DNA of 64,000 nucleotides from Oligoflexia bacterium (GCA_903881565.1 CAIRTR010000126.1:15385-79384), one strand, 5' to 3'. Counted from the stretch's first letter, positions 8,513 to 59,926 are shown. A program made the numbers and translations. The notes: a model not told the origin generated them from the letters alone.

Positions 8513-8620
8513 CATAAATGCTGCCATTCTAAGGACTCGCCCCGGTGAACCACCCCACCGAGAGGCGATAGAAGCGTATTTTTACAAGCTCATTCGATTT
8601 GAGTATCTTTTGGCCCTAAT

Positions 8621-8638
8621 CCTAACCCACTCCTGACA
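8621..8638 (+). promoter_or_regulatory. Candidate Pho box: 7-bp direct repeats with a 4-bp spacer (CCTAACC-cact-CCTGACA), 37-54 nt upstream of the PHP gene start
   Basis: The same 7-4-7 architecture and near-identical half-sites recur upstream of pstS and in the ppk/PAP2 divergent region. The E. coli Pho box has the same 7-4-7 layout (CTGTCAT-N4-CTGTCAT). Confidence 0.45.
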
Positions 8639-8674
8639 CACAAATCCCAAAATTTCCCCTAATCTCTAATAATC

Positions 8675-9487
8675 ATGAAGCAGCTGGTGCTTGGAGATTT
8701 TCACATCCATTCGACGTTCAGTGACGGCAAACTCACGATCCCTGAGATTGTCGACCTCTACGGTTCATTAGGTTTTGGCGCAATTGCAATCACGGACCAC
8801 CTCTGCGAAAGCCATTCGATGATCGGAAAAGCAGCCCGCTACATTGGCCACACGCTGACGCCTGCGAGCTTTCCTCTTTATATTGAAATCCTCAAATCCG
8901 AAGCCGACCGAGCCATGAAGCAATACCAGATGGTGGTCATCCCAGGAGTTGAGATCTCCAAGAACTCCATCTCCAATCACCGATCCGCCCACATTTTGGC
9001 GCTTGGAATCACGCAGTGGATTTCTGCCGACAAAGACGCTTTAGAGATTGTCCGAGAAATTAAATCCCTCGGCGGGCTATCCGTAGCCGCCCATCCTGTT
9101 TGGACTCGAAAACGTGAGAAACAATCCTATCACCTCTGGGACCGAAGAGAAGAACTTAAATCAGAGATCGACGCTTGGGAAGTCGCCAGTGGCCCCTACT
9201 TCTTTGATGAGGTTCTCCACAGTGGGCTTCCCATGATCGCAAGCAGCGATCTTCATCACAGAAATCAAATCACGTCTTGGAAATCCGTCCTTCATTGCAA
9301 GCGGACCCAAGCCGATGTGTTCATGGCAATCCGTAATCAGGAGCTGTCATTTCAATTCTATCAGGAGGTGAACAATGACTACCCTCGCTCTACTAATGCT
9401 CCTCATTTGGTTCGTAGCCCTAACTCTGACACTTTACGGAACAGCCCTCACAATCAGGGCGATGAATTGCCAACCCCCGCACCTTGA
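8675..9487 (+). CDS. PHP-domain (polymerase/histidinol-phosphatase-like) metal-dependent phosphoesterase
   Basis: 270 aa. N-terminal GDFHIHSTFSDG and ITDH motifs are typical of PHP. The 3' end overlaps the next gene by about 113 nt in another frame. Confidence 0.7.
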   Translation: MKQLVLGDFHIHSTFSDGKLTIPEIVDLYGSLGFGAIAITDHLCESHSMIGKAARYIGHTLTPASFPLYIEILKSEADRAMKQYQMVVIPGVEISKNSISNHRSAHILALGITQWISADKDALEIVREIKSLGGLSVAAHPVWTRKREKQSYHLWDRREELKSEIDAWEVASGPYFFDEVLHSGLPMIASSDLHHRNQITSWKSVLHCKRTQADVFMAIRNQELSFQFYQEVNNDYPRSTNAPHLVRSPNSDTLRNSPHNQGDELPTPAP

Positions 9488-10535
9488 CGCTCCTTTTGGA
9501 CTTTTCCCCGTCTCCATTCTAAAACCCTTAAAAGGCGCAGAAAATGGGATAAAGGAAAACATTCGAAGCTTCTTTGATCTCGATTACCCTCACTTTGAAC
9601 TTCTTTTTTCCATCGCAGAAAATTCTGACCCCGCAAAACATCTTGTCCGTGAACTGATACAGCAATACCCACACGTCAAAGCGAAACTTATCGTAGGCCA
9701 GATTGAAGCAGGCCCCAATCCTAAGGTAAATAACCTCATCAAAAGTTACGAGGCCGCAAGCCATGACCTCATCCTAATTAGTGATAGCAATATCCGCGTA
9801 GAAGCAAACTACCTCAAGCGCCTAGTCGCGCATCTGGATAACGGCGTGGGCGTGATCACGGCAATCGTTGCCGGACGCAATGCTGAGACGTTTGGAGGCA
9901 AACTCGAATCGACCTATCTCAATACTTTTTATGCGCGATGGATGGTTCTTGCCGCTAGATTTGGCAATCCCTGTGTGGTTGGTAAATCCATGCTCTTTAG
10001 TCGCAAAACGGCTGAGCGATTCGGGGGAATCAAAACCCTTGCTAGGTATCTTGCAGAGGATTACATGACGGGCGTTGCGATGTTAAGGCTTGGCCTGCGA
10101 GTCATCATCATGAGTGACCCAGTTCCCCAATTTATTGGGAGTTATCCCATGAGAGATTTTTGGAGTCGACATCTGCGCTGGGGGCGAATCCGAAAATCTC
10201 AAGCAGAGCTCGCTTTTGCTATCGAGCCGCTCTTTGGCTGCTTTGTATCTGGAATTGCAGGATCCTGGGCTACTTCACAACTATTCGATTGCAGCTGGGC
10301 CCCAGTCCTTTTCTTGCATCTTGTCTTCTGGTGCATCAACGATCTTATCCTCCAAATGCGCATTGGCAAGGAACTTAGCCTTTCAGCACCGCTCATGTGG
10401 CTCACTCGTGAAACTCTCTCCTTTCCGATGTGGCTTCATATTGCGCTTGGAAAAACGGTAATGTGGAGAGGGCGAAAATTGGTTTTGCAACCCGGTGGAC
10501 TTTTGGATCCCAAGTGGGGCCAAGCTGATGCGTGA
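9375..10535 (+). CDS. membrane GT2-family glycosyltransferase, like ceramide glucosyltransferase (GT21) or HpnI
   Basis: 386 aa. AGGAGG lies 7 nt upstream of the ATG at 9375. Has an N-terminal TM helix, a catalytic region ending in the RHLRWGRIR ((Q/R)xxRW) motif, and several C-terminal TM helices. Confidence 0.65.
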   Translation: MTTLALLMLLIWFVALTLTLYGTALTIRAMNCQPPHLDAPFGLFPVSILKPLKGAENGIKENIRSFFDLDYPHFELLFSIAENSDPAKHLVRELIQQYPHVKAKLIVGQIEAGPNPKVNNLIKSYEAASHDLILISDSNIRVEANYLKRLVAHLDNGVGVITAIVAGRNAETFGGKLESTYLNTFYARWMVLAARFGNPCVVGKSMLFSRKTAERFGGIKTLARYLAEDYMTGVAMLRLGLRVIIMSDPVPQFIGSYPMRDFWSRHLRWGRIRKSQAELAFAIEPLFGCFVSGIAGSWATSQLFDCSWAPVLFLHLVFWCINDLILQMRIGKELSLSAPLMWLTRETLSFPMWLHIALGKTVMWRGRKLVLQPGGLLDPKWGQADA

Positions 10536-11829
10536 ATTTCTCTGGGGAGCTGCTACGAGTAGTCACCAGATTGAAGGCTACAACGACAAAAATGATTGGT
10601 GGGAATGGGAATTAAAGGGCAACATCGAGGGCAATGCGAGATCGGGCGCTGCGACAGATCACCTGAATCGGTTTCGCGAGGACATAAAACTTGCCGCAGA
10701 CCTAGGACTAAACAGTTACCGCTTTTCAATCGAATGGTCACGACTGGAGCCCCAAGAAGGCCAATGGAGCGATGAGGCCTTTGGGTGGTACAAAGATCTG
10801 CTTTCGGAGTGTGAGAAGCATAAACTAAAGCCTATGCTCACGCTGCACCATTTTACTTCACCTAATTGGTTCGCAAAAAGGGGCGGATTCACAGCTCCTG
10901 ATGCGCCCAACTATTTTTGCGAATTTGTAAAACGAGTCATTCACGAATTAGGCCCCAGAATCCCACTATGGTGCACCTTTAATGAGCCCATGGTTTTACT
11001 AGTCGGTTCCTATTTGGGCAAATTCATGCCTCCTGCCGAGTTCTCACCTCTTAAGTTTTCACAGGCTTGCCAGGGCATCCTTAAATCCCATCAGCAAGCC
11101 TACGAACTCATTCACAACCAACCTCTTCGCAGCGGACCCTGGAAAGATAACCCGATCCAAGTTGGGATCGCGCATAACCTCATTGATTTTTATGCCGACC
11201 GCCACTGGCATCCTCTTGAGCTACTTTTTACCAAACTTCTTCGCAAGTTTTATAACCAAGCGTGGCTTGATGCGATCACAGGAGGAGCGATCAACTTTCG
11301 AATTCCCGGCTTCATCCCTGGCCCAAAACCTGCCGTGAGCATCACCCCAAAAGGATGTGCCGACTTTATTGGAATCAATTATTATACCAAGGCCTACGTC
11401 AAGTGGCGCCCCAGAGACAAAGCGGAGGGAATCTCGCCCGATTTTCCTGTAGGTATTGCATTTTCCAGAAGAAAAGAACCCACCTCAGAAGTGGGATGGG
11501 CAATACATCCCAAAGGACTGGGACGAATGCTTCGGTTTGCATCACACTACAAACTGCCAATCTACATCACTGAAAATGGAATTGCAGATAAGGTAGACAA
11601 AATGCGCGAAGCCTATCTCACATCACACTTAGCCCAGGTCACTCTCGCCATTGAAGGGGGAATTGATGTTCGGGGCTATTACCACTGGTCACTTCTGGAT
11701 AACTTCGAATGGATCAAGGGCTTTGGCCCGCGGTTTGGGCTGTACGAAGTCAACTATGAAACTTTTGAAAGAAAACTTCGAAACTCAGGCAAGTTTTTGA
11801 AGAAAACTATTCTTGAATCTTCGAAATAG
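10528..11829 (+). CDS. GH1 family beta-glucosidase
   Basis: The N-terminus MREFLWGAATSSHQIEG is present, with the acid/base motif TFNEP and the nucleophile motif ITENG. The ORF-track start at 10495 is probably too early. The ATG at 10528 overlaps the GT2 stop by 8 nt. Confidence 0.85.
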   Translation: MREFLWGAATSSHQIEGYNDKNDWWEWELKGNIEGNARSGAATDHLNRFREDIKLAADLGLNSYRFSIEWSRLEPQEGQWSDEAFGWYKDLLSECEKHKLKPMLTLHHFTSPNWFAKRGGFTAPDAPNYFCEFVKRVIHELGPRIPLWCTFNEPMVLLVGSYLGKFMPPAEFSPLKFSQACQGILKSHQQAYELIHNQPLRSGPWKDNPIQVGIAHNLIDFYADRHWHPLELLFTKLLRKFYNQAWLDAITGGAINFRIPGFIPGPKPAVSITPKGCADFIGINYYTKAYVKWRPRDKAEGISPDFPVGIAFSRRKEPTSEVGWAIHPKGLGRMLRFASHYKLPIYITENGIADKVDKMREAYLTSHLAQVTLAIEGGIDVRGYYHWSLLDNFEWIKGFGPRFGLYEVNYETFERKLRNSGKFLKKTILESSK

Positions 11830-11898
11830 ACGTCGAGCAAAACCAAAGCCTGTAAAGGCTTGCTGCGACAAATTTAGTCTGCTATCAAAGGTTTACCC

Positions 11899-13398
11899 AT
11901 GAGAATCGCAATCATCGACTTAGGCACCAATTCAGTTCGTTTCGACATTCATCAGCTGGGGCCCAAGAAGAAGTCGACTCGCCTCCTTCATCGTGAAAAA
12001 ATCATGATCCGACTGGGCCAGGGTGTTTTTACCAAGGGCCAGTTAGATCCGGCTGCGATCCATCGTACGACGCACGCTTTTTCAACGTTTAAGAAGATTT
12101 GCGATGAATTCTTGGTCAACCGCATTATCGCGCTCGGAACAAGTGCATTGCGCGAGGCCACCGATGCTCCGAAGCTTGTGGCCCATATTCGTAAATCAAC
12201 CGGGATCGACGTTCGAGTTATTTCAGGTTCTGAAGAGGCTAAACTCATTGCCCAGGGCATACTCGGAAATATGAAAATGAGAGCGGGCAAAACCGCCTTA
12301 ATTGACATTGGCGGCGGGAGCACAGAAGTCAGTATCATTCACAAAAAGAAGATCCTATTTTGCGAAAGTTTTCCATTAGGCACAGCACGTCTGCAGCAAG
12401 TTTTCCTGAAAGTCAGTCCTCCCCCGCCCGAAGCCATTGGCGAATTGCGCCAATTTATTCGAAATACCTTATTTTCGAAATTCTCTGGTGTACAAATACC
12501 CAAGGTTTCAAAATCCATTGGATCCAGTGGTACGATCAAGGCTTTGGCCCGCATTGAAAAAAAGACGACAGGAGCAAAAACCCTCAAAGCCAAAAACGTC
12601 CAAACTCAGGTCAAAAAAATAAGTCGCATGAACACGACCCAACTTTTGGAGTTGCCGGGACTTGAAGCGAAACGCGTTGACATGATTCTTGCCGGCACGA
12701 TTCTTCTCGAAGAATGTTTGGCGATCTTTGGAATAAAAGAAGTGCTCCCAACGGATTACTGCCTTCGAGATGGCATACTGCTTGAGCAAATTGAGTTGGC
12801 GAAACGCCATATGACCTCCCGCATCGCCTTGCACTTGCCGGATCTGATCGAAAAAGCGAGAAAACTCGGCGGAAAAGAGGCCAATCTAAAATGGGCCAGC
12901 GAGAATGCAAAACTGCTTTTTACTCGATTGCGTCCACTGCATAAACTTGATCAAAACTCGTGTCTCTACCTCCAGGCAGCTGCAGTGCTGCGCAACAGTG
13001 GAAAAGCCGTTTCGTTTGCGGGCCACCCAGAGCACTCCTACTACATCGTCAAGAATGCGAACTTCCCCTTTGTAGAGAGCTGGGAATCCGAACTTGTGGC
13101 GCAACTCTGCCGGCATCATGGCCACGCAAAAATTGAATCAAAAGCCATTCCCTTTGCTAGGGAGAAATCTCGAAGGAATACTTTCCTGAAACTTCTTGGA
13201 ATTTTGAGTTTGCTCGACACCCTAGACAGAGACCCTACCAACCCTCCCCAAATTAAGAGAGTTGTTGTAAAGAAACACGCAGTTCATGTCACATTTACAA
13301 AAGGCTCTCCCTCGAATCTTGAATTTTTTAGAGCCGAGAGCCGAAAACAACTTTTTCAACAGATTTTTGATCGCGAACTGGTCCTGGCTCGAAACTAA
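11899..13398 (+). CDS. ppx: exopolyphosphatase / pppGpp phosphohydrolase (Ppx/GppA family)
   Basis: 499 aa. N-terminal IAIIDLGTNSVRFDI and the ASKHA-fold motifs are present. Confidence 0.85.
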   Translation: MRIAIIDLGTNSVRFDIHQLGPKKKSTRLLHREKIMIRLGQGVFTKGQLDPAAIHRTTHAFSTFKKICDEFLVNRIIALGTSALREATDAPKLVAHIRKSTGIDVRVISGSEEAKLIAQGILGNMKMRAGKTALIDIGGGSTEVSIIHKKKILFCESFPLGTARLQQVFLKVSPPPPEAIGELRQFIRNTLFSKFSGVQIPKVSKSIGSSGTIKALARIEKKTTGAKTLKAKNVQTQVKKISRMNTTQLLELPGLEAKRVDMILAGTILLEECLAIFGIKEVLPTDYCLRDGILLEQIELAKRHMTSRIALHLPDLIEKARKLGGKEANLKWASENAKLLFTRLRPLHKLDQNSCLYLQAAAVLRNSGKAVSFAGHPEHSYYIVKNANFPFVESWESELVAQLCRHHGHAKIESKAIPFAREKSRRNTFLKLLGILSLLDTLDRDPTNPPQIKRVVVKKHAVHVTFTKGSPSNLEFFRAESRKQLFQQIFDRELVLARN

Positions 13399-13892
13399 AA
13401 CTTCTGAATAATTTCAGAAAGCTTGAGGAGATCTGCACCCCCCTCAAATCTCGCCCATGCGCCTTTTTTCAGCTCGACTCTCTCACCCGTTATTCGCTCC
13501 ATAAAAGCCGGGATCCAATCTCCATGAGAACATGCAACAACGACTTGCGCCCGAAAATTCTTAAACGCTTTTAAAAACTCATCCACCTTCTTGTCAATTG
13601 GCTCACCTTCACTCAGGCACTGCAGTTCTTTGATCCGCCCCCGATCGTCTGCCACAAACGGCAACAGCGTCTCAAGGCACCTCTTTTTTGGACTGCTTAG
13701 GAACAGGCAATCTTTCAAACTTGGAAATGTTGAATGAAAGTATTTCGCCGCCTTCAGCGCCTGCTTTCGCCCCTTTGCGCTTAGGCCGTTATCAAATGCA
13801 CTCCCCATCTCTTTATCGCGATGGGCATGTCGAACGATTATTAAGGTTCTATTTGATTTCAAGGGGCGTCCCCGCATATTCTTGCTCCGCAA
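13395..13892 (-). CDS. histidine-phosphatase superfamily protein, similar to the phosphohistidine phosphatase SixA
   Basis: 165 aa. Catalytic RHAHR(D) motif near the N-terminus. It overlaps ppx and ppk1 by a few nt at each end. Confidence 0.6.
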   Translation of the reverse strand: MRSKNMRGRPLKSNRTLIIVRHAHRDKEMGSAFDNGLSAKGRKQALKAAKYFHSTFPSLKDCLFLSSPKKRCLETLLPFVADDRGRIKELQCLSEGEPIDKKVDEFLKAFKNFRAQVVVACSHGDWIPAFMERITGERVELKKGAWARFEGGADLLKLSEIIQKF

Positions 13893-15975
13893 GTTCAGCG
13901 AAAAAAAACTGTGATCTCAAGGAACCCCCCGCCTGTTTTTGGTCAAGGGCACGCCAATGGCCATCAAAGCCTAGCTCCTTAGCCTTGACCCGATCATTCA
14001 TATAAGCAGGGAGCAATACCCCCGATATATAGCGATAAAGTCTTTCATCCAAAACGGGAAAAGCAAGCTCGAGTCTTGAAAAAAAGTTCCGAGGCATCCA
14101 ATCAGCGCTCGATAGGTAAAGTGCTTTTGAATTTTCAAAAAAATAAATTCGACTATGTTCTAAGAATCGATCCACGATACTCACGACACGAATATTCTCG
14201 CTTAACTTTTTCGCCCCAGGGACAAGGGCACAGGCTCCCCGAACGATCAGATCCACTTTAACCCCAGCTGATGACGCCTCATAGAGCTTCACAATCACTG
14301 CATGATCGACCAAAGTATTTACTTTTCCCACTATCCGGGCTGTTTTTCCCGCCTTTGCCGCAGTAATCTCCGCGTCGATTAATTGCAAAATTCTTCGATG
14401 AAGCTTAGCCGGAGCCGGCACAAGCCGTTTGAAAGTTTGGGGAACCTCCCCCTTTGCGACCGTATCGAAAAATTTGAGAGCGTCTTCGCCAATTTCGGGG
14501 TTAGCCGTTAAAATAGCAAGATCGGTATATTGTCTTGCGGTAATGGAGTTATAATTGCCCGTCGAAAGATGCGTGTAGAGCCTCACTCCACCTTCTTCTT
14601 TTCGTGAAACGAGAGCAATTTTGGCGTGAAGCTTAAGCTTTCCAAAGCCAAAAACGACTTCGATCCCCGCGTTTCGAAGCTCCTCGGCCAACCGTAAATT
14701 ATTGAGCTCATCAAACCGCGCCCGAAGTTCAATAACAACTCGAATCTTTTTACGCCCTGCCACTGACTTTAGCGCATCAATCACAGGAGACAACGCATCG
14801 ACTCGATAAACAGTTTGTTGAATCATACTCACGTCACTGTCCGCGCAAGCCTGACGAATCCAATTCACATAGGCATCAAACGAGTCATAGGGGTGATGCA
14901 AGAGCAGATCTCTCTTCTTAAGACTCTCAAATATTTTGTCATCAATGCGAAACTCTCTAGGCACCAGGCCCTTAATCGGAGCATGCAGTAATTCACGCTT
15001 CTTCAAGATCGATTCGGGAATCGTATTTAAAACAGACCAAAGTCCATTCAAACATAACGTTGCAGGCGTCTGAAAAATCTGCTGAGGACTCAGCCTCAGT
15101 GCCTTTTTCAAAAGCTCCTCAAAATGAGGAACCTTTACCCCTCGATGTTGAATTCGCACCGGACGACCTCGATCACGTTTTCTAAGACTGGAAAGCACCA
15201 CATCGGGAACGGATTCAGTGTCTTCCTCCTCAAGATCCACACTCAAGTCCGCATCGCGAGTAAACCGGAGAATTGAGATCTCCTCTTTTAGTCCAAAGGC
15301 TGCAGGAAGAAACTCCTGAAGTAAATGATCCAAAAAGAAAAAATAAACGCATGGTTCATTTTTGCTGTCACTACTCTGTGCCGTGAGAACACTTTTTAAC
15401 TTCTTAGGGATTCGAACAAACGAGCCAGCAGGAAAAACTGCTGCGAGCTGCAAATTATCAATCAATCCAATTTGCGCGGCACTCACCGCTTCTGGAGCGG
15501 ACAATTCGGGGAAAACGGTTTCGTAAAAGGCTTGTTTGGCCAAAGCGTAATAAGAATCAGTCTCACTGAGACTTGTCACAAAATGAAGGTGAAACCTGGA
15601 CAGCTCACGACTCAGGCTCTCAAGGGTTTGCGCTTGCTGCTGCTGAAACCGATTCATTTTGCCAAGAATGACCGAGCGAATGCGCCTAAGACGCCTCAGT
15701 TGCTTTTGTTCTCCGCGCCTAAGAGCGGTTGAAATGGAACGCCCCAGCGAGGCCATCCGGATCATAAAGAATTCGTCCAAGTTTGATGAAGTGATTGAAA
15801 GAAACTTCACCCGCTCAAGCAAAGGATTTTCTTTGAGGTTAGCCTCAGCCAAGACACGCGAATTAAACTCAAGCCAACTCAAATCCCTATGGATGAAGGG
15901 TTGAGCAGCATCAAGCAACATCGGCCGCAATTTGGGAGCAGGAGTAAACGAATCCATATCTGTACCGTGGCTCAT
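13849..15975 (-). CDS. ppk: polyphosphate kinase 1
   Basis: 708 aa. N-terminal RDLSWLEFNSRVLAEA, and two PLD-like HxK(x)4D regions (KLHAKIALV). Full-length PPK1 architecture. Confidence 0.9.
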   Translation of the reverse strand: MSHGTDMDSFTPAPKLRPMLLDAAQPFIHRDLSWLEFNSRVLAEANLKENPLLERVKFLSITSSNLDEFFMIRMASLGRSISTALRRGEQKQLRRLRRIRSVILGKMNRFQQQQAQTLESLSRELSRFHLHFVTSLSETDSYYALAKQAFYETVFPELSAPEAVSAAQIGLIDNLQLAAVFPAGSFVRIPKKLKSVLTAQSSDSKNEPCVYFFFLDHLLQEFLPAAFGLKEEISILRFTRDADLSVDLEEEDTESVPDVVLSSLRKRDRGRPVRIQHRGVKVPHFEELLKKALRLSPQQIFQTPATLCLNGLWSVLNTIPESILKKRELLHAPIKGLVPREFRIDDKIFESLKKRDLLLHHPYDSFDAYVNWIRQACADSDVSMIQQTVYRVDALSPVIDALKSVAGRKKIRVVIELRARFDELNNLRLAEELRNAGIEVVFGFGKLKLHAKIALVSRKEEGGVRLYTHLSTGNYNSITARQYTDLAILTANPEIGEDALKFFDTVAKGEVPQTFKRLVPAPAKLHRRILQLIDAEITAAKAGKTARIVGKVNTLVDHAVIVKLYEASSAGVKVDLIVRGACALVPGAKKLSENIRVVSIVDRFLEHSRIYFFENSKALYLSSADWMPRNFFSRLELAFPVLDERLYRYISGVLLPAYMNDRVKAKELGFDGHWRALDQKQAGGSLRSQFFFAELAEQEYAGTPLEIK

Positions 15976-16016
15976 TGAATCATAAGCGGGGTGTTTGCGC
16001 CATCTTTATACAAATT

Positions 16017-16072
16017 CCTAACCCAATCCTAACAAAGCAACTCTAGGAAAAATTCTTAACCAAGTCCTGACA
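16017..16072 (+). promoter_or_regulatory. Two candidate Pho boxes in the divergent ppk1 / PAP2 intergenic region
   Basis: CCTAACC-caat-CCTAACA at 16017-16034 and CTTAACC-aagt-CCTGACA at 16055-16072, each 7-4-7. The second pair ends 38 nt upstream of the PAP2 ATG. The first begins 42 nt from the ppk1 ATG on the opposite strand. Confidence 0.45.
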
Positions 16073-16109
16073 CTGAAACACAAATGATCTTGCTAAAATC
16101 TAACTCAAG

Positions 16110-16625
16110 ATGAGCGCAATAACCAGAACTCTTGAAAGCATTTTCTATCTCGATCAAATCAGCCTCCGGTGGATCGCCAGCCGAAGGCATCCCCTCACTG
16201 ATCGACTCATGCGAGGTTTTACTCATGCCGGAGACTGGCAAAGTTGGACGGTCCTCATTCTTGCATCCTTCCTAGCAGGTGAACCCTTTCGCCATATCGC
16301 AATTCAAATTACACCCAAACTTCTGCTCACCTTAGCCCTCTGTTACGCCATCAAGGCAATCTCAAGACGTCCAAGGCCTGTGAAATCAATGCAGGGGTTT
16401 TCTTCGCTACTTAAGGATCCCGACCCCTATTCTTTTCCCTCCTCGCACTCCGCTTGTGCGTGGCTCGTATGCATGAGCCTTGCCCTCATGTTTGGAGGAG
16501 GATGGAGTTTATTGTGCCTCTATGCAGCGGCTATCAGTTATTCGCGCGTTCATGTTGGTGCACATTACCCGCTTGATGTGCTGATCGGGAGCGCATTGGG
16601 AATCCTCATTGCTTCGATCTTTTAA
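16110..16625 (+). CDS. PAP2-family membrane phosphatase (undecaprenyl-diphosphatase / PgpB-like)
   Basis: 171 aa, multi-TM. Acid-phosphatase motifs KxxxxxRP (AISRRPRP), PSSHS and SRVHVGAHY are present. Confidence 0.7.
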   Translation: MSAITRTLESIFYLDQISLRWIASRRHPLTDRLMRGFTHAGDWQSWTVLILASFLAGEPFRHIAIQITPKLLLTLALCYAIKAISRRPRPVKSMQGFSSLLKDPDPYSFPSSHSACAWLVCMSLALMFGGGWSLLCLYAAAISYSRVHVGAHYPLDVLIGSALGILIASIF

Positions 16626-16747
16626 TCCGCATCCCACGTCAAAAATTCATCTACCCGATATCCATTCACGATCTATTCACATAAGCAAAGCCGTTCACTT
16701 GTAGCACCCCCATTATCTAGTAATTCTTCTTACAAAATTCATTGCCA

Positions 16748-16763
16748 CCCCCCCCCCCCGGGG
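16748..16763. repeat. Homopolymeric C12 tract followed by G4, about 60 nt upstream of the Cys-rich protein gene
   Basis: attgccaCCCCCCCCCCCCGGGGatt, seen directly. Length is in the range prone to slipped-strand variation. Confidence 0.85.
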
Positions 16764-16822
16764 ATTACCATTTAAACTCACCACGCATCCTATTTAACAA
16801 CAACTCTCAAGGAGGAGTACAA

Positions 16823-17194
16823 ATGTTCAAAAAGTGCATTCTATTAGTTGGATCAATTGCGTTTATTTTTCAGGTTCAAGCCTATGCCGGTGAATGTGTT
16901 CTCTCCATCACCCGCGATGCGTGCCCCGGAAAAGACAAAGAATCTTTTGCCAAGTGTGATGGCAAAGCATCCTGCGATGAATCCAAAAAAACCGGTAGTG
17001 CTGAGGCTTGCGCAAAAGAAGCCATAAAAGCATGCCAAAACAAGCGGCTTGATGTGACCAAAAACAAAACCATCACCGCAAAATTTGGTGGCGCAGCGGT
17101 CGAAGGTGGCAAGGACTTTTGTAAGGACAAAGTCGAAGGCCTCTTTGATCCCGAAAAAGACTTCCCTCATCGCGGCAAAGCTGACTGCAAGTAA
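16823..17194 (+). CDS. small secreted cysteine- and lysine-rich protein of unknown function
   Basis: The ORF-track ORF starts at 16742. GGAGGAG lies 6 nt upstream of the ATG at 16823. Signal peptide [22 protein letters not shown]. The mature protein is about 100 aa with roughly 9 Cys and no known domain. Confidence 0.5.
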
Positions 17195-17226
17195 GAGCCT
17201 CATTAACTAAAGAAGGTGGAGACGAT

Positions 17227-18819
17227 ATGTTAGAAAAATTCGGAATCTGGTTGGATCGGTTTCCAATGAAATCGAAACTGGTCGCCTCCACCTCTTTGTT
17301 CCTTTTGACAACCGTGACGGTGGGTGTGGTGAGCCAGATCGTGATTCGCTCACTTACAAAGTCAGTCTATAGCCTTTCTTCCTCATCGGCCTCAGCCGAT
17401 TGGTTGTCCCAAGCTTCAATCACGAAGCCCGAGATAATTCAAAACCTCTGGATCGCGTCATTTGACTATGATGCGGGGAAAAAAACTTCGGCTTCATCCA
17501 TTAAGGACATTAAGACTTCGAGCGAAAACTTTGCAGACGCATTTCAAAAGTACGCCGTCGAAGCCCCCCTCAATCCCAAAGAAAAAGAATTGTACGATAA
17601 GCTAGAGAAGACCTGGGCCCCCATTAATCTCAAGATAAAGAACCTAACCGAGGCGCTCACCGAAGCCAAACTAAGCCGCGCGGAGATGAGTAAGCAAGTC
17701 GCCACCTTAAGTGACGAATGCCTTGGATTAAGCGATATCCTGTCGGAACTTGGGACGATCGTGAAGCAAAAGGGGACTGAGGCAGCGAATCAAGCTGCAG
17801 CACTTCAAAAGAAGAACTCGATCTTTGCCATCCTCATTGCAATCCTTGCCCTGGCCGTTGCAGCACTTTCATTTGGCATCGTTTCCAAGATTTCTCGCTG
17901 GCTGGGAGATATCGCAAAACGCCTTGTGCGTGAAGCCCAAGAAGTCGCCTCCGCATCAACCAGCATCTCGGCCTCAGCTGAAAAGCTTTCATCTGGCTCA
18001 ACTGAGCAAAGCGCAGCAGTTCAAGAAACGGTTTCGTCTCTTGAAGAAGTAGGCTCTATGATCGAGAAAAACGCTGATAACTCCAATCGCTCAAAAGAGC
18101 GCTCTGAGGAATGCTCTAAAGCTGCATGCCAAGGAAAAGTAGCCGTAGAAAAAGTCATTCTCGCGATGGACGAAATCAATCGAAGTAACAGCGAGATCAT
18201 TGAACAAGTCAAGAAGGGCAATCAAGAAATTTCAGACATCGTAAAGGTTATCGCTGAAATCGACACCAAGACCAAGGTCATCAACGACATCGTCTTCCAA
18301 ACCAAACTCCTGTCCTTCAACGCATCAGTTGAAGCAGCGAGAGCGGGAGATCACGGCAAGGGTTTCGCAGTCGTCGCTGAAGAAGTTGGGAAACTAGCCC
18401 AAATGAGCGGAAATGCCGCCAAAGACATTTCGGAAATGCTGGACGCCAGCATCAAGAAGGTTGAATCTATCGTTACGGGCAATCGTTCTAGAGTTGATCA
18501 ATTTATCGTTTTGGGACGCCAAAAAGTCGACGCGGGTATACAGACCGCAAAAGATTGCGGGAGTGTTCTTGAGAACATTGTCATGAATGTGGACGAGGTC
18601 AACAATATGATCTCGGAGATCGCGATCGCCACCAAAGAGCAGGCATTGGGCGTAGGTCAAATAAAGCAGGCCATGAATCAGATTGAGCAGGCAACCGTTC
18701 AGAGCGCTGATGTTTCACATCAGTCTGCAACAATGGCAAAACAACTGACCGGGCAATCGGAGAATTTGAAAACAATCGTTAGCGATTTAGAATCACTCGT
18801 TAACGGACAATCGGAATAA
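17227..18819 (+). CDS. methyl-accepting chemotaxis protein
   Basis: 530 aa. Has an N-terminal TM helix, a periplasmic region, a second TM helix, a HAMP-like region, and the highly conserved MCP signalling domain ([26 protein letters not shown]). Confidence 0.85.
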
Positions 18820-18835
18820 CGATCGCCTGGGGTTT

Positions 18836-20626
18836 TTAACCCAACGCCCCCGGAAACCGACACACAAAACTCGCCCCCTGCCCCACCGTACTCTCAACCC
18901 ACACGGCGCCGCCGTGGCGTTGCATGATGTGTTTGACAATGGCAAGCCCTAGTCCCGTTCCCCCTAACTCACGAGAGCGGGCTTTATCGACTCGGTAAAA
19001 GCGCTCAAAAAGCCTTTCATGATGCTCTGGAGGGATCCCGGGTCCTGAATCAGAAACCTTCAATAGGACTTCATTTGAAGGCGTCCTCTCCCAACTCAAA
19101 CTAATCTGTCCTCCCGAGGGAGTGTATTTGGCGGCGTTGTCCAGGAGATTAACCAGCACTTGCTCCAAGCGAGTGGCATCAGCGTAAACATTTGAAACAC
19201 CGGCGTGTAAAATGACATTTTGCTTTTTAGTTTCAAAAGCACCGCTTAACTGTTTAAGCACCCGGGCACTGATTTCTTCAGTACTCAATTCAATCCTCTG
19301 CAAATTATCCGCATTGGCATCTAAAGAAGACAGATCTAGCAGATCATTGATCAGACTCATCAGGCGCGCCGTATTGCGACTGATCACTTCAACAAATTCC
19401 TTGGAGATCGCCCGCCCCTGCCCAATGTCCTGCTCCAGGGTGTCCGTATAACCCTTAATCGCCGTCAGAGGAGTACGAAGTTCATGAGAAACGTTAGCCA
19501 CAAAATCGATTCGAATTTGTTCAGCCTTTTTTAAGGCCGTCACATCATGAAACACCCCAACGGCGCCGTAGACTCCTCCAATTGTACTTCTACGCAGGGG
19601 CGCCACCGACAGTGAGAAGAATTTTTGCCCTTCACTATGAGCAAAAGCATGCGCGCTGATCGCGGTATTCTTCCCCCCTTTCAAAGCCGCCCGAAAGGCA
19701 TCAAGTACTTCAGGATCCCGAAAAAGTTCCCAAAGCCTGGCGTTGCCAGTCCGCAGCACCGCCTGCCCACCAAAAAGCACGGCAAAACGGCTATTATAAA
19801 AAAGCGGCGTTCCCTCCAAATCGACAGCAATGATCGCATCCGATATGGCACTCATGAGAGTCGCTTGCTCTTCGCGCTCGCGATTGAGGTTCTCAGCTTT
19901 GGCTTCTAGATCACGTCGAATATCCTCAAGCGATGAATCCAGTTCAGATAATTCCCCAAAGGAGTCTTCTTCAAACTCCTGCTCACTTGCTTGATGATGA
20001 GCTACATTCTCAGCTTTGAGCAAAATGCGCCCCAACGGTAATGCCAATTTTCGCCCCGACCATAGCGCAAAGCCACCCAGAACGAGCGCAATCAAAACCA
20101 AAAATCCAATCAACGACGAATCCAAAATCTGAAGGCTCGCAATGAGATTTGAAAGTGGGATGGCTCCTCTTAGAAACACGCCCTTGCTTTTTACATTCAG
20201 CGCTCCATAAAGCATGTTCTCGCTTAGGGTCTCACTATAGCGAACGCTCTGCCCAAATCCAGATGTAGAACCAAGCGCAGCCTGTACTTCAGTCCTACCC
20301 AGATGATTCTCCATGGTTTGCACTTGATGGTGCGAATCACAAAGGACTAAGCCACTTGACGCAATAAGTGTGAGACGAAAAGAAGAATCATGAGAATGAG
20401 TCGCGCACCATGACGGGGTAACATTCGCGGGCAAATCCCCGGGTAGATCTTGAGTCAAACTCTTCAAAGTGACATGAAGCTGGGACTCGACTTGAGCGAT
20501 AAACTGCTGCTTGTAAAAATAGCGGGCAGCAACCCCCGAAGCGGCAACCGCCACAAGAACGAGAAGGGCTTGAATCAGGACAATTCGTGAAAACAGCCGC
20601 CAGGGAAATCTCTTTGGAATTGTCAT
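18836..20626 (-). CDS. phoR: phosphate-regulon sensor histidine kinase
   Basis: 596 aa. Two TM helices, a PAS-like region, the HisKA H-box SHELRTPLTAI and HATPase_c motifs. It sits immediately downstream of phoB. Confidence 0.8.
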   Translation of the reverse strand: MTIPKRFPWRLFSRIVLIQALLVLVAVAASGVAARYFYKQQFIAQVESQLHVTLKSLTQDLPGDLPANVTPSWCATHSHDSSFRLTLIASSGLVLCDSHHQVQTMENHLGRTEVQAALGSTSGFGQSVRYSETLSENMLYGALNVKSKGVFLRGAIPLSNLIASLQILDSSLIGFLVLIALVLGGFALWSGRKLALPLGRILLKAENVAHHQASEQEFEEDSFGELSELDSSLEDIRRDLEAKAENLNREREEQATLMSAISDAIIAVDLEGTPLFYNSRFAVLFGGQAVLRTGNARLWELFRDPEVLDAFRAALKGGKNTAISAHAFAHSEGQKFFSLSVAPLRRSTIGGVYGAVGVFHDVTALKKAEQIRIDFVANVSHELRTPLTAIKGYTDTLEQDIGQGRAISKEFVEVISRNTARLMSLINDLLDLSSLDANADNLQRIELSTEEISARVLKQLSGAFETKKQNVILHAGVSNVYADATRLEQVLVNLLDNAAKYTPSGGQISLSWERTPSNEVLLKVSDSGPGIPPEHHERLFERFYRVDKARSRELGGTGLGLAIVKHIMQRHGGAVWVESTVGQGASFVCRFPGALG

Positions 20627-20633
20627 ATGACGC

Positions 20634-21317
20634 TCACTCGGCCTTCACGCGATAGCCCACGCCTCGAATCGTCTCAATGATTTCGGCACACACTCCCAGT
20701 TTTTTTCGCAAACCAAAAACATGGGTATCCACGGTACGATCCGTCACACTGACTCCCTCGCCCTGCACGTGTTCAATTAGTTTATCGCGCGAAAGGACCC
20801 GACCCCGATTCTCTAGGAGCGCCACAAGAAGCTTAAATTCAGACGTCGTGAGCTGAATTTCTTCAGTCGCACACCATACTTTATGCTCGCCTAAACTCAC
20901 TTTAAGGTCTCCAATACTAAATCCCGCAGCCGTAGATCCCCTAGCGGCCATGGAGACCTCCTGAGTCCTTCTTAGCAGCGCCTTTACTCGCGCCAGAAAC
21001 ACAGCGATTTCAAATGGCTTGGTGACATAATCATCCGCACCCGACTCAAGGCCTCGAACAATATCAGCCGAATCCGCGCGTGCAGTGACCATGAGAATAG
21101 GCAGCTTTCCTGAAAAGGCCTTGCAGAGTTCCAATCCCGAGATTCCGGGAAGCATCCAATCTAATATAGCCAGTTCAAATTTGCCTTCAGAAAAAAGCTT
21201 AAGGCCCAACTCCCCGTTTTCGGCCCCCACTGCATCAAAGCCCTCACGCTTAAGATGCATGAGCATCAGCGTTCGAATGTCCGCTTCGTCTTCGACAACC
21301 AGAATTCGAGCGTTCAT
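20634..21317 (-). CDS. phoB: phosphate-regulon response regulator of the OmpR/PhoB family
   Basis: 227 aa. Receiver domain (ILVVEDE...D) plus a winged-helix domain. Located between phoU and phoR. Confidence 0.85.
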   Translation of the reverse strand: MNARILVVEDEADIRTLMLMHLKREGFDAVGAENGELGLKLFSEGKFELAILDWMLPGISGLELCKAFSGKLPILMVTARADSADIVRGLESGADDYVTKPFEIAVFLARVKALLRRTQEVSMAARGSTAAGFSIGDLKVSLGEHKVWCATEEIQLTTSEFKLLVALLENRGRVLSRDKLIEHVQGEGVSVTDRTVDTHVFGLRKKLGVCAEIIETIRGVGYRVKAE

Positions 21318-22006
21318 TTTGACTCCAACGCCTTTTTGATTGTCTGCATACTCCCCGAATGCCTAATATCTTCGCCTGTGATCGCAAAAACCACGTCCTC
21401 TGCAATATTGGTCGCGTGATCCCCAAGGCGCTCTAAGTTTCTCGCGATCAAGATGAGGGTTAGGCCCTGCTCAATCATTTCGGGTTGATCCTTCAAATGC
21501 TCCAGTACATCCCTGAAAATCTTATTCTTAAGAGCATCCACTTTATCATCACGACTCAGAACCTCGCGTGCCAGCCCCTCATCGGTCTTTACAAATGAAT
21601 CAATTGCAGCCCTTACCATGACACGCACTTCTTCAGCCATCACCGGTAAATCAATGAGCGGCTTAAGAGGCAGACCTCTTAAATAGCGATCACTATTATA
21701 AGCGATATTTTCAGCCTGATCGCCCATCCGCTCTAAATCCGTGTTGATCTTGATAATTGCAACAATTAGCCTGAGATCGGCAGCCAGGGGCTGCTGAAGG
21801 GCCAATAGCTTCAGACAGGAATTATCCACCGCTTTATGAGCTAGATTCACCTTCTTTTCCATCTCATGAACATGCGCAATCTTGGTCAGATCCCGTTTCT
21901 GAAGCGCCTGAGTCGCATCATCAATCGCGCGCTCCACCAGCCCCGCCATCGCCACCAACTGTTCTTTTAACTCTCTTAAGGAAACATCAAAATGCCGTTC
22001 CATCAC
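21314..22006 (-). CDS. phoU: phosphate signalling complex protein PhoU
   Basis: 230 aa. Two PhoU repeats, each with a DxxERxxD motif ([30 protein letters not shown]). Confidence 0.85.
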
Positions 22007-22761
22007 CCAAACCTCCCCGTAATGTATCGCTCCGTTCTTTGGTCCTTGGGAGCAGTAAATAGTTCTGACGTCTCACCGTACTCAATCATTTCACCTAAAA
22101 GAAAAAAGGCCGTCTTATCTGAAATCCGCGCGGCCTGCTGCATATTATGTGTCACAATCACGATCGTGACTGTTTTCTTAAGCTCTGTCATGAGTTCTTC
22201 GATCTTCGCCGTCGAAATCGGATCCAGCGCGCTCGTGGGCTCATCCATAAGCAAAACAGAGGGCTCCACGGCCAAAGCGCGCGCAATGCAGAGTCGCTGT
22301 TGCTGTCCCCCTGAGAGACTCGTGCCTTGTGAGTTTAACTTATCCTTCACTTCTTCCCATAGGGCCGCAAGCTTTAGGCTGCGCTCAACGGTCTCACGAA
22401 GGATGGCCCCCCGTCTCACTCCTGCCAATTTTAAACCAATTGCAACGTTATCAAAGATTGAGAGCGAGGGAAAAGGATTGGGTTTTTGAAAGACCATCCC
22501 GATCTTGCGACGAATGGCCACGGGATCAACATCGGAGGCATAAATATCATGCCCTTGAAGCAAGACTTTACCCGTGGCTGAGGCCTCCGCCACTTCTTCA
22601 TGCAATCGATTGAGGCATCGAATAAACGTTGATTTGCCACAACCCGAAGGCCCGATGATCGCCGACACCGTGAATTCATCAAAATCCATTTGAATGTTTT
22701 TCAGAACCTGAGTTGACCCAAATGAAGCACTGAGATTTTGAGTTGAAAGCAAAGAATACAT
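22003..22761 (-). CDS. pstB: phosphate ABC transporter ATP-binding protein
   Basis: 252 aa. Walker [13 protein letters not shown] signature LSGGQQQRL, Walker B LLMDEP. Confidence 0.9.
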
Positions 22762-23657
22762 TAGTTTCCACCCTGTTTTTTTGAATTCCCGCCAGAATTA
22801 AATACCACTCGAGTCAACAAATTCATAGCAAACACGAGCATCACCAGGAGCAGGGCTCCCGCCCATGCCTGCCGATGCCAATCGTCATAAGGACTAATGG
22901 CGTACGTGTAGATTTGAACAGGGAGAGATGCAATCGGTTGATCCAATCCGCTTTGCCAAAAGCGATTATTAAAAGCGGTAAATAAAAGAGGTGCGGTTTC
23001 ACCCGAGACTCTCGCAATTGAGAGCATGATGCCCGTCGTGATCGGCCCGCGACTCCCCTTGAGAATAATCCACAAAATAACTTTCCACCGAGGGAGCCCC
23101 AAAGCCAAGCCCGCCTCCCGAATGTGCTCGGGGATCATTCTAAGAAGCTCCTCAGTCGTCCGACAAACCGTCGGGATCATCAAGATCCCAAGAGCCAGGC
23201 CTCCCGCAACGGCTGAGAATCTCCTCATGGTTATAACCACAAGCGCGTAAACAAAAAGCCCCACAATAATTGAAGGAATACTCGAAAGCATGTCCGCACT
23301 AAAGCGCACAACGCCAGCGAACCTGCCCCGCCCTTGCTTTCCCCCGTATTCGGACAAATACAACGCAACCGATACGCCCCAGGGGATCCCAATCAATGAG
23401 GCCAACGCGACCAACGTACAAGTGCCCAAAAGTGCATTGGCCATCCCACCGCCGATCTCACCCACAGGCTTCGGAACCGCGGTAAAAAACTCCCAATTAA
23501 GCGCAGAATACCCTTGCGCCACGACATAGCCAAAAACACTAAAGAGGGGAAAAATCGCGAGGGTAGCAGCCAACACCAAAAGCCCACACATCAAGGCATT
23601 GATGGCTTTTCTTTTTCGGTAACTGCGAAAAATGTAGTCTGCAAAATGCCGCTGCAT
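22761..23657 (-). CDS. pstA: phosphate ABC transporter permease PstA
   Basis: 298 aa. Polytopic membrane protein with the ABC permease EAA-like loop. Position in the pst operon supports the call. Confidence 0.85.
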
Positions 23658-24622
23658 TATTTAGCGCCTCCAGGCGAATTGGAAGGAGCGCCCCAACGAA
23701 AGCCCCGAGAAATAAATAATCGAGCAAGGCTGTTGATGACGAACGTCACCGCAAAAAGCAAAAGCCCGACTTCAACAAGTGCTGCAACATGAACGTCACT
23801 GGTCGCCTCGGCATACTCATTGGCGATGATACTGGCCATCGTCGATCCAGGCGCAAACAAAGAGGCGGAAACCTCATGGCGATTGCCAATAAGCATCGTG
23901 ACCGCCATCGTCTCCCCCAACGCTCGTCCCAAACCTAAAATCACGGCGCCGATGATTCCGCGCCTTGCACTTTGTAAAACAGATAATCGCATCATCTCCC
24001 AGCGAGTCGAGCCCAGAGCCAATGCCGCCTCACGCTGCACGCGAGGGATTGCATTGAAGATCTCGCGCGAAATACTTGAGATCGTCGGCGTAATCATGAT
24101 GGCCAGAATAATCCCCGCAGCCAACATCCCTACCCCGTAAGGAGCGCCCTGAAAAAATGGCAAAAAACCCATAGTTTTGGCCAAAAAAGGCTCCACCGTC
24201 GTCCTGAGCCAAGGCGCCAGGACGAAGATTCCCCATAAGCCATAAACCACACTCGGAATCGCAGCCAGCATCTCGACAAGAAATCCCACAACCCGCCCCA
24301 CTCGCGTGGGGGCAATCTCGGTCAGAAACAAGGCGACGCCCACACTCAAAGGCGTTGAGATGAGTATAGCAATAAAAGAAGAAACCACGGTTCCGTAGAC
24401 CACGGGAAGCGCGCCATAAACGTCATTAACCGGATCCCAAACAGAGGTCGTGACAAAACTCCAGCCCTGCTTGTGAATCACGGGCAAAGCGTTGCGGAAA
24501 AGATAGTAGGCTATAGAAACGAGAAGCAAAACTAAGGCGACCGAGGGCACCTTCAAAATGAAGGCAAACACTCGATCGCCTAAGTGAACTTCACGTTTTT
24601 TTCTATTTAGCTTGAATCTCAT
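23657..24622 (-). CDS. pstC: phosphate ABC transporter permease PstC
   Basis: 321 aa membrane permease. The ORF start overlaps the pstS 3' end by about 20 nt, so the true start may lie slightly downstream. Confidence 0.8.
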   Translation of the reverse strand: MRFKLNRKKREVHLGDRVFAFILKVPSVALVLLLVSIAYYLFRNALPVIHKQGWSFVTTSVWDPVNDVYGALPVVYGTVVSSFIAILISTPLSVGVALFLTEIAPTRVGRVVGFLVEMLAAIPSVVYGLWGIFVLAPWLRTTVEPFLAKTMGFLPFFQGAPYGVGMLAAGIILAIMITPTISSISREIFNAIPRVQREAALALGSTRWEMMRLSVLQSARRGIIGAVILGLGRALGETMAVTMLIGNRHEVSASLFAPGSTMASIIANEYAEATSDVHVAALVEVGLLLFAVTFVINSLARLFISRGFRWGAPSNSPGGAK

Positions 24623-25631
24623 TAATCTTGGCCTCTACCTTGCTCAGCATGGCTTTGGGCAGTGGCGCGTAGAACAGAGGTTCAGCACTCGCTTGTCCCT
24701 CTTTGATAGCCCAATGCAGAAATTTCACAATTTTTGCCCCTTTATCCTTAAACTGCTCTGGAGCCATTGTCTTATAGACCAGCAAATAAGTGAAGCCGCT
24801 TATTGGATAAGAATCCTTGCCCTCAGCGTCGGTAATGGAAACGCGGAAATCAGCAGGCATAGATTTCAATGATCCTGCTGCAGCAGCGCTCACACTTTTC
24901 GTATTAGGTTCCACCACACTTCCGGCCTTGTTCTTCACCCAAGCGTAAGTGAGCTGATTGTTCTTGGCGTAAATCAACTCGACGTATCCAATCGCACCGG
25001 GCGTTTGTTTTACGAGACCCGTGACGCCTTCATTGCCTTTTCCCCCTAAACCCACAGGCCAATTAACGGCCGTTCCCGCTCCCACTTTGGTTTTCCATTC
25101 GGGACTGACTTTCGCTAGATAATCGGTGAAAATTCCAGAAGTGCCACTCCCATCCGAGCGATGCACGACGAGGACCGCGTCCTCTGGCAGTTTCAAGCCG
25201 GGATTAAGTGTCACAAGCTTAGGGTCGTTCCACTTGGTGATTTTTCCCAAAAATATTTCTGAAACGATCTCAGCACTCAACTTAAGCCCCGTTGCAAGTC
25301 CCGGGACGTTATAAGTCAAAACGACGGCGCCCAAGACCGTTGGAATATGAACAACCGGAATCGAAGACTTGCTCAACTGCTCATCCGTCATCGGAGAATC
25401 GGTTGCACCAAAATCCACGGTTTTTTCCAAAAACTGGCGAATGCCCCCACCGCTACCGATAGACTGATAATTGATCTGGGTTTCAGGATCGATCTTTTGA
25501 TAATCCGAGAACCATTTTGAATACAGAGGATAGGGAAAGGTTGCCCCCGCGCCGTTGATCATATTTGCCGCAAAGGCGGATGTGCCCAGCGAGAAAGCGA
25601 GTGTCAGAACCAATGCACTAAATTTTTTCAT
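24603..25631 (-). CDS. pstS: phosphate-binding periplasmic protein PstS
   Basis: 342 aa with a signal peptide. PBP superfamily (GAGATFPYPLYSKW, SDGSGTSG). Confidence 0.85.
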   Translation of the reverse strand: MKKFSALVLTLAFSLGTSAFAANMINGAGATFPYPLYSKWFSDYQKIDPETQINYQSIGSGGGIRQFLEKTVDFGATDSPMTDEQLSKSSIPVVHIPTVLGAVVLTYNVPGLATGLKLSAEIVSEIFLGKITKWNDPKLVTLNPGLKLPEDAVLVVHRSDGSGTSGIFTDYLAKVSPEWKTKVGAGTAVNWPVGLGGKGNEGVTGLVKQTPGAIGYVELIYAKNNQLTYAWVKNKAGSVVEPNTKSVSAAAAGSLKSMPADFRVSITDAEGKDSYPISGFTYLLVYKTMAPEQFKDKGAKIVKFLHWAIKEGQASAEPLFYAPLPKAMLSKVEAKINEIQAK

Positions 25632-25682
25632 AAAGCCTCCATTTTGTTTGGCCTGATTCTATCGCAATAGAGGGCTTTCGTT

Positions 25683-25700
25683 TGTCAGGATTGTGTTAGG
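25683..25700 (-). promoter_or_regulatory. Candidate Pho box 52 nt upstream of pstS. On the minus strand it reads CCTAACA-caat-CCTGACA.
   Basis: It is the reverse complement of tgtcagg-attg-tgttagg. A TAGAAT -10-like hexamer lies between the box and the pstS ATG. Confidence 0.5.
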
Positions 25701-25705
25701 AACTG

Positions 25706-54706: not shown

Positions 54707-54715
54707 ATGAATTGT

Positions 54716-54752
54716 GACCCGTTCCGGGATTCCGGGACGGGTCTTTTTTTTT
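54716..54752 (+). terminator. Rho-independent terminator after the histone-fold gene
   Basis: gacccgttccgg-gat-tccgggacgggtc followed by T9, read directly from the sequence. Confidence 0.75.
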
Positions 54753-54782
54753 GCGGTTTCTTTAAAACTCACCCAAAATCTC

Positions 54783-59921: not shown

Positions 59922-59926
59922 GAATT

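Follow-up and report, generated by a model that had tools for sequence, protein, structure and literature searches.

A 64,000-nucleotide stretch of an Oligoflexia bacterium genome (GCA_903881565.1, CAIRTR010000126.1:15385-79384; the whole stretch is referred to here as the window) encodes phosphate uptake genes together with a PhoB-type response regulator and a PhoR-type histidine kinase, and a direct repeat of the type CCTAACC-N4-CCTGACA lies at phosphate-related promoters within it. The locus raises the question whether this repeat is the operator (i.e., the Pho box) of the PhoR-PhoB system and, if so, how far beyond this organism it extends. PhoB and other members of the OmpR family bind head-to-tail to paired direct repeats that recur every 11 bp (7 + 4 bp) (PMC4415409; PMC3973317), and the Pho box of Escherichia coli, CTGTCAT-N4-CTGTCAT, lies 10 bp upstream of the -10 (PMC1906773). 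A literature search found no described Pho box for Bdellovibrionota or Bdellovibrio. Our data suggest, with a probability that we put at about 85%, that the repeat is the PhoB operator of the PhoR-PhoB system across Bdellovibrionota.

Four repeats lie at phosphate-related promoters of the window

We found 7-4-7 direct repeats at all four positions reported in a preliminary description of this DNA. The first, CCTAACC-cact-CCTGACA (8621-8638, plus strand, preceded by T at 8620; 29.7 bits), lies at the promoter of a PHP phosphoesterase gene, 37-54 nt upstream of its ATG at 8675. Two repeats lie between the divergent ppk1 and PAP2 genes, namely box 2a, CCTAACC-caat-CCTAACA (16017-16034, plus strand; 30.8 bits), and box 2b at the PAP2 promoter, CTTAACC-aagt-CCTGACA (16055-16072, plus strand; 24.1 bits). 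The fourth, CCTAACA-caat-CCTGACA (25683-25700, minus strand, preceded by T at 25701; 31.1 bits), lies upstream of the pst genes. The consensus of the preliminary description, CCTRACM-N4-CCTRACA, is exact at three of these four sites, while box 2b has T for C at position 2. The pst box lies 51 nt before the pstS ATG (25631).

The repeat is exclusive to these promoters within the 64-kb window. The exact consensus has three matches against 0.00 expected, and none of 100 dinucleotide-preserving shuffles contained any. Allowing up to two mismatches adds box 2b as the sole extra match, and a relaxed regular expression returns exactly the four boxes. With a 22-bp matrix the four boxes score 24.1-31.1 bits and the next-best position of the window 11.0 bits. 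A similar frequency of the motif elsewhere had been named as a test of the proposal; we found no match of comparable strength in the rest of the window or in loci of other phyla totalling 1.23 Mb. Every 7-mer is preceded by T, and the true repeat unit is therefore an 11-mer beginning TCCT.

The box is kept at orthologous promoters throughout Bdellovibrionota

The PstS protein of the window is closest to those of metagenome-assembled genomes (MAGs) of Bacteriovoracaceae (70%), Oligoflexia (64%), Bdellovibrionales and Bacteriovorax, and the named homologues of its PhoB come from Bdellovibrionota, Oligoflexia, Bacteriovoracia and Bdellovibrionia, including 'Bdellovibrionota bacterium FG-2' at 88% identity. 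The window matches a metagenome contig, and these homologies place its source among the uncultured members of Bdellovibrionota. We scanned 186 kb of Bdellovibrionota loci (136 kb plus about 50 kb) with a matrix built solely from the four window sites, so that these relatives constitute an independent test. Nine sites scored at least 17 bits, and all of them lie directly upstream of pstS (L004, L005, L018, L095, L097 and L098), PAP2 (L095) or PHP (L099 and L101) and face the gene. Weaker boxes were found at pstS in L047 (16.9 bits) and L101 (14.5 bits) and, in the same place as the others, at PHP in L096 (15.5 bits) and L100 (14.6 bits). Overall, 9 of 10 lineages have the box at pstS, 5 of 5 at the PHP operon and 2 of 2 at PAP2, and at the compared promoters it always points toward its gene. 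The spacers between box and -10 are fully diverged across these promoters and share no common sequence.

An unbiased k-mer count in the 10 lineages, covering 200 nt ahead of pstS, gave TCCTAA (9/10), TCCTAAC (8/10) and CCTGACA (6/10) as the top words, with the control at 3-4. Among 75 loci of other phyla (the same 1.23 Mb), the matrix maximum was 16.8 bits, and of the six matches of at least 14 bits two (L016 and L039) lie just upstream of pstS and read GTAAC. The box is kept at orthologous promoters of pstS, the canonical PhoB target, and of other phosphate genes. The expectation that pstS orthologues in relatives would carry the box was thus borne out, while the label "organism-specific" proved too narrow: the motif is present in the classes that were sampled, namely Oligoflexia, Bacteriovoracia and Bdellovibrionales or Bdellovibrionia, and is phylum-wide.

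In L003, an AT-rich Bacteriovoracaceae MAG, the sole good dimer, CCCTAACAGAATCTTGACAG (3564-3583, minus strand), lies reversed over the pstS start codon, and the region upstream of pstS has good single units 23 bp apart.

Two 11-bp units take the place of the -35

We compared 34 units position by position (T28, C32, C30, T34, A21/G13, A34, C33, A17/C11, n, A26, n). The 11-bp unit reads T-C-C-T-(A/G)-A-C-(C/A)-n-A-n; T4 and A6 are invariant, C7 is found in 33/34 and C2 in 32/34, and the period is exactly 11 bp. The two units of a box differ in character, the upstream unit being TCCTAACC-nA-n (A5 in 15/17, A10 in 17/17) and the downstream unit TCCTGACA (G5 in 11/17, A8 in 14/17). Scores of the flanking units are at background, L096 and L101 excepted, and a box thus normally consists of two units; three tandem units are found at the PHP promoters of L096 and L101 and in the metagenomic contig L088.

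A -10-like hexamer beginning with TA follows the box at 21 nt in 9 of 16 promoters and at 22 nt in 5 more; the binomial probability of 14/16 at 21-22 nt is 2e-11 (p = 0.125). In the window, the inferred -10s are all spaced 21 nt from their box: TAATCT (8660-8665, plus strand) follows the PHP box with 9 nt left to the ATG, TAAAAT (16094-16099, plus strand) follows box 2b with 10 nt left to the PAP2 ATG at 16110, and TAGAAT (25656-25661, minus strand) follows the pst box. Canonical sigma-70 promoters were considered at the PHP, PAP2 and pstS promoters and rejected, as no canonical -35/-10 pair there uses an inferred -10. The box, in one orientation and at a fixed distance from this inferred -10, takes the place of the -35. 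A third, degenerate unit filling the 21-nt gap was likewise considered and rejected, since unit scores in the gap are at background.

Several inferred -10s end 6-10 nt before the start codon with no Shine-Dalgarno sequence between them, namely at PHP and PAP2 of the window and in L004, L005, L086, L094 and L095 (PAP2). This proximity and the missing Shine-Dalgarno sequence suggest that several of the Pho promoters give rise to mRNAs with little or no leader. At pstS of the window, the stretch from -10 to ATG is 25 nt long and contains GGAGG.

PhoB carries a lineage-specific recognition helix

The presumed box-binding regulator is encoded by phoB (20634-21317, minus strand; recognition helix DRTVDTHVFGLRKK). 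The preliminary description stated that the window encodes phoB and phoR. A response regulator and a histidine kinase do directly follow pstSCAB-phoU, and the best NCBIfam model for the regulator is TIGR02154 (PhoB); both proteins score below the cut-offs of their models, the kinase matching PnpS best (324.4 vs a cut-off of 400) and TIGR02966 (PhoR) only as the third-ranked model (280.6 vs 334.2).

The closest named structure for the DNA-binding domain of the window PhoB is E. coli PhoB. Alignment with 1GXP/3T72 shows T194 and R219 kept and the changes V197T, R200F and R201G in the helix, together with W184Q and E191T in the transactivation loop. Positions 184 and 191 of E. coli PhoB matter for its contact with sigma-70. 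The helix DTH[VI]FG[LI]R[KRQ]K is found in 112 of the 120 closest PhoB homologues, and the PhoB of the metagenomic contig L094 has the same helix as the window PhoB. PhoB homologues of other phyla keep an arginine aligned with Arg201, within RRLR in Verrucomicrobia and several others and within TRLR in Geobacter. Arg201 of E. coli PhoB forms a hydrogen bond with a guanine of the bound DNA, while Thr194 and Val197 contact thymines and the bases that separate the two half-sites are read by Arg219 (PMC3973317). The loss of this guanine-reading arginine thus coincides with a half-site that begins with CC instead of TG, a relation that is correlative and no proof. In the transactivation loop, VQG is kept in 110 of the 120 homologues.

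Matches to the promoter pattern in metagenomes

We searched metagenomes for the combined pattern of box and hexamer, TCCTAACM-N3-TCCTGACA-N21-TANNNT. It matched 12 stretches, about 9 of them independent. One match lies 6 nt upstream of the pstS start (L086) and another 7 nt upstream of pstC (L094), whose operon also includes phoB; the remainder fall in tandem repeats (L085 and L093), in a duplicate pair (L083 and L090), near methylase-like genes (L087 and L092), ahead of a gene for a large Cys-rich protein (L088) or without clear genes. The scan is too sparse for an enrichment statistic, and it is consistent with the Pho-box hypothesis.

Weighing the Pho box against alternative explanations

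The exclusivity of the repeat in the window, its presence at pstS, PHP and PAP2 of relatives, its orientation and its spacing to the -10 all support the interpretation as a Pho box that the preliminary description had offered. Several observations weigh against it. The window PhoB scores 207.6 against an equivalog cut-off of 296.2 for TIGR02154. One of the 10 pstS loci (L003, 35% G+C) lacks a canonical forward dimer, a stand-alone phoBR and a PHO4/PhoU_div pair in L096 have no box, and the orthologues of ppk1 (n = 3) do not conserve it, with none in L102 and L103. Most other metagenome matches are not beside recognisable phosphate genes. The distance between box and -10 exceeds that of E. coli by 11 bp, with no degenerate third unit in the gap, and the E. 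coli activation geometry is therefore not simply transferable. Lastly, the promoters share descent, so that the lineage counts overstate independence.

The main rival is that the repeat is the operator of another regulator (e.g., another OmpR-family response regulator) acting on the same genes, with PhoB binding elsewhere. The sub-threshold PhoB assignment, a half-site unlike the E. coli box and a distance to the -10 of 21 rather than 10 nt count in its favour. Nevertheless, pstS is the canonical PhoB target and the box is the top conserved element there, without a competing second element; phoBR is probably co-transcribed with pst in most loci; and the lineage-specific helix and half-site co-vary. 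We consider another regulator improbable. It is still harder to sustain that the downstream CTGACA is a -35-like element of a sigma-70 or alternative sigma promoter, to which the upstream repeat is incidental. The preference for G5 does give TGACA, resembling TTGACA, and the distance to the -10-like hexamer is fixed, but a gap of 21-22 nt is outside the sigma-70 range of 16-18 nt, and conservation of the upstream unit equals or exceeds that of the downstream one (A10 in 17/17; C2, T4, A6 and C7 invariant; C3 in 15/17). Moreover, the element is confined to phosphate-related promoters and occurs as three tandem units in L096 and L101. That the four sites arose by chance, or are copies of a dispersed repeat that regulates nothing, can be practically dismissed: they come from one window and their consensus was set after they had been seen, yet the shuffles yielded none, a matrix from the window only predicts sites at orthologous promoters of independent genomes, and orientation and -10 spacing are conserved.

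Proposed mechanism

With the repeat taken as the PhoB operator, we infer that PhoB is the binder, that it activates rather than represses, and that the signal is phosphate. Under phosphate limitation, phosphorylated PhoB would bind both units as a head-to-tail dimer, the box lying at about -51 to -34 relative to an inferred start about 7 nt after the -10 hexamer. Bound PhoB would recruit sigma-70 RNA polymerase, since these promoters have no -35. The targets would be pstSCAB-phoU-phoBR (high-affinity uptake and autoregulation), PHP-GT21-GH1-ppx (phosphoesterase, glycosyltransferase, glycosidase and polyphosphate breakdown) and the PAP2 phosphatase gene.

The element is the lineage version of a well-known switch and not a new mechanism, and the understanding of Pho regulation itself is unchanged. 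What is gained is a usable PhoB operator model (matrix, orientation and promoter geometry) for a phylum of largely predatory, mostly uncultured bacteria, which makes it feasible to predict phosphate regulons straight from MAGs. The lineage also offers a natural test of PhoB-helix specificity, given that R201G tracks the change from TG to CC in the half-site, and its conserved PHP-GT21-GH1 operon is flagged as a probable core target of phosphate starvation.

A further and tentative idea, which we regard as rather doubtful, joins two proposals: that the PhoB of Bdellovibrionota forms a distinct specificity class, and that PHP-GT21-GH1 is a previously unrecognised module for remodelling membrane lipids during phosphate starvation. 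On the side of PhoB, R201G and V197T might retarget the protein from TGTxA-type to CCT(A/G)AC half-sites, the dimer might be displaced upstream by one helical turn relative to E. coli, and PhoB and sigma region 4 might together read the downstream CTGACA via the altered loop (W184Q, E191T). On the side of the lipids, the PHP phosphoesterase might remove phospho-head groups and the family-21 glycosyltransferase (GT21) might build a glycolipid. PlcP and Agt are a lipid-remodelling pair of phosphate starvation, to which the predicted module would be analogous with different enzymes. Caulobacter has PhoB-dependent glycosyltransferases, Sgt1/Sgt2 (PMC6445935), and here too the predicted module would be analogous and enzymatically different.

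Genes probably served by the boxes

The assignments of the genes around the boxes (PHP, GT21, GH1, Ppx, ppk1, PAP2, PhoR, PhoB, PhoU and PstBACS) were upheld by Pfam and NCBIfam. On the minus strand, pstS, pstC, pstA, pstB, phoU, phoB and phoR form a string (18836-25631) in which the genes overlap or abut, and the same order is found in L095, L097, L098, L101, L103 and L104. pstSCAB-phoU-phoBR is probably one autoregulated operon.

On the plus strand, the genes for the PHP phosphoesterase (8675-9487), the GT21 glycosyltransferase (9375-10535), a GH1 glycosidase (10495-11829) and a Ppx/GppA exopolyphosphatase (11899-13398) form a candidate Pho-regulated operon (8675-13398). In L096, L100, L101 and the context of P0229 the order PHP-GT21-GH1 recurs, with pst or phoBR genes alongside: it follows phoBR in L096 and pstSCAB-phoU-phoBR in L101, and on the P0229 contig the operon is beside PhoX, a phosphonate ABC (ATP-binding cassette) system and a regulator/kinase pair. 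L099 keeps PHP-GT21 but has no GH1 there, nor any pst or phoBR genes as neighbours. The box precedes the PHP operon in all five lineages for which there is DNA. The PHP, GT21 and GH1 frames overlap (window 8675-11829; L096 11840-15081; L099 8001-9990; L100 8001-11220; L101 8001-11194), and in L096 a Metallophos gene comes after PHP-GT21-GH1.

Box 2b and box 2a lie between ppk1 (13849-15975, minus strand; Pfam), which together with a His_Phos_1 protein gene occupies 13395-15975 (minus strand), and the divergent gene for a PAP2-family phosphatase (16110-16625, plus strand; PF01569), a candidate member of the regulon. NCBIfam undecaprenyl-diphosphatase models match the PAP2 protein only below cut-off. 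The PAP2 orthologue of L095 keeps the box upstream although ppk1 is not its neighbour there, which assigns box 2b to PAP2. No -10 follows box 2a at 21 nt; this box is reversed with respect to ppk1, and on the ppk1 strand a TATAAA (16010-16005, minus) is 6 nt away from it. Box 2a could be an auxiliary upstream PAP2 site or a reverse-oriented operator over the ppk1 promoter.

Every gene downstream of a box had been put forward as a plausible Pho member. Conservation of the boxes supports this for the PHP operon, PAP2 and pst, and does not support it for ppk1: as a conserved regulon member ppk1 was rejected, two of its three orthologues being boxless and the third, in L104, having an ambiguous, weak, reverse-oriented TCTGACA-taat-CCTGACG at the contig end. 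The membership of ppk1 in the regulon is uncertain. Stand-alone phoBR autoregulation and regulation of PitA-type PHO4 transporters were also considered and rejected, as neither the stand-alone phoBR nor the PHO4/PhoU_div pair of L096 has a box and a scan with the 22-bp matrix found none upstream of the PitA-type PHO4 transporter gene of the window (54714-55826).

A three-gene arrangement, in which ppk1 runs into a small His_Phos_1 gene that overlaps it and ppx converges on the two, is kept in these genomes (window 11899-15975; L102 10001-14064; L103 10001-14056; L104 116-4168). In L103, a weak box-like dimer, TCCTAATCAAACCCTGGCTT (16202-16221, minus strand; 11 bits), lies 36-55 nt upstream of a string of genes for 118, 453 and 111 amino acids that runs into ppx, and it may be the counterpart of the box-controlled ppx of the window.

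Relation to known Pho boxes

The preliminary description noted that the 11-bp periodicity mirrors the E. coli box while the half-site differs, and our data agree: the element is a 7-4-7 direct repeat of CCT(A/G)AC(C/A). As in E. coli, two 7-bp direct repeats with a 4-bp linker replace the -35 at pstS-type promoters, and phoB-type and phoR-type genes are present. Unlike in E. coli, the half-site is CCT(A/G)AC(C/A) rather than CTGTCAT, and the box ends 21-22 rather than 10 nt from the -10. With the half-site, Gly201 and Thr197 all different, the box does not conform to an E. coli-type consensus; it would work in the same way but belongs to another sequence class.

The PhoP box of Bacillus subtilis consists of TT(A/T/C)ACA repeats about 11 bp apart, with four repeats from about -60 to -20 in core promoters. 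It shares with the present box the TAACA core and 11-bp direct repeats on the coding strand, whereas the latter consists of two units, at about -51 to -34. The pstS promoters of other phyla have a related sequence. Within 260 nt ahead of pstS, TGTAAC is present in 23 of 27 Acidobacteria loci (L012-L082) and 5 of 5 Geobacter loci (L009, L016, L022, L024 and L025), and Verrucomicrobia (L011, L036 and L039) have GTAACA or TGTCAC repeats. TGTAAC often forms an 11-bp direct repeat, as in TGTAACA-tggc-TGTAACA of L026, and L021 has TTTAACA-ctga-TTTAACA. These TGTAACA-type repeats are probably the Pho boxes of Acidobacteria, Geobacter and Verrucomicrobia; they have the same TAACA core, 11-bp repeat and position at pstS as the box described here, but start with TG instead of CC.

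The SphR Pho box of Synechocystis, CTTAACCT, has 8 bp plus a 3-bp linker, and at least three repeats are reported to be needed (PMC1906773). Compared by box sequence, it is the nearest to ours in half-site, and it resembles ours in its 11-bp direct repeats upstream of pst and in this nearly identical half-site, which CTTAACC (16055) matches at 7/7 and CCTAACC at 6/7 positions, and differs in that two units are usual here, the downstream unit is CCTGACA and the phylum is another. The PHO box of Streptomyces coelicolor has direct-repeat units of 11 nt with GTTCACC (PMC4415409); the 11-nt units and the variable unit number are alike, while the core sequence and the high-G+C context are not.

Further observations

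Some metagenome matches have features of their own. In L088 (6286-6327, minus strand; a contig of 55% G+C), the units TTTTAACAAAT-TCCTAACAAAT-TCCTGACAA and a TACTAT hexamer stand before the gene for a Cys-rich protein of 1744 amino acids. L087 (4397-4442, minus strand) and L092 (4190-4235, minus strand) are homologous, each with a full box and TATCGT 100-150 nt upstream of the gene for a protein of about 877 amino acids; from their sequences these proteins look like putative N6-adenine DNA methylases. The marine contigs L085 (6171-6352) and L093 (32-200) have a tandem repeat of about 136 bp with the full pattern in each unit, which is probably unrelated to Pho regulation.

Elsewhere in the window, the genes for Topo VI A/Spo11 and Topo VI B, subunits of a type IIB topoisomerase, are adjacent (58746-61714, minus strand), a side-by-side placement that is uncommon in bacteria.

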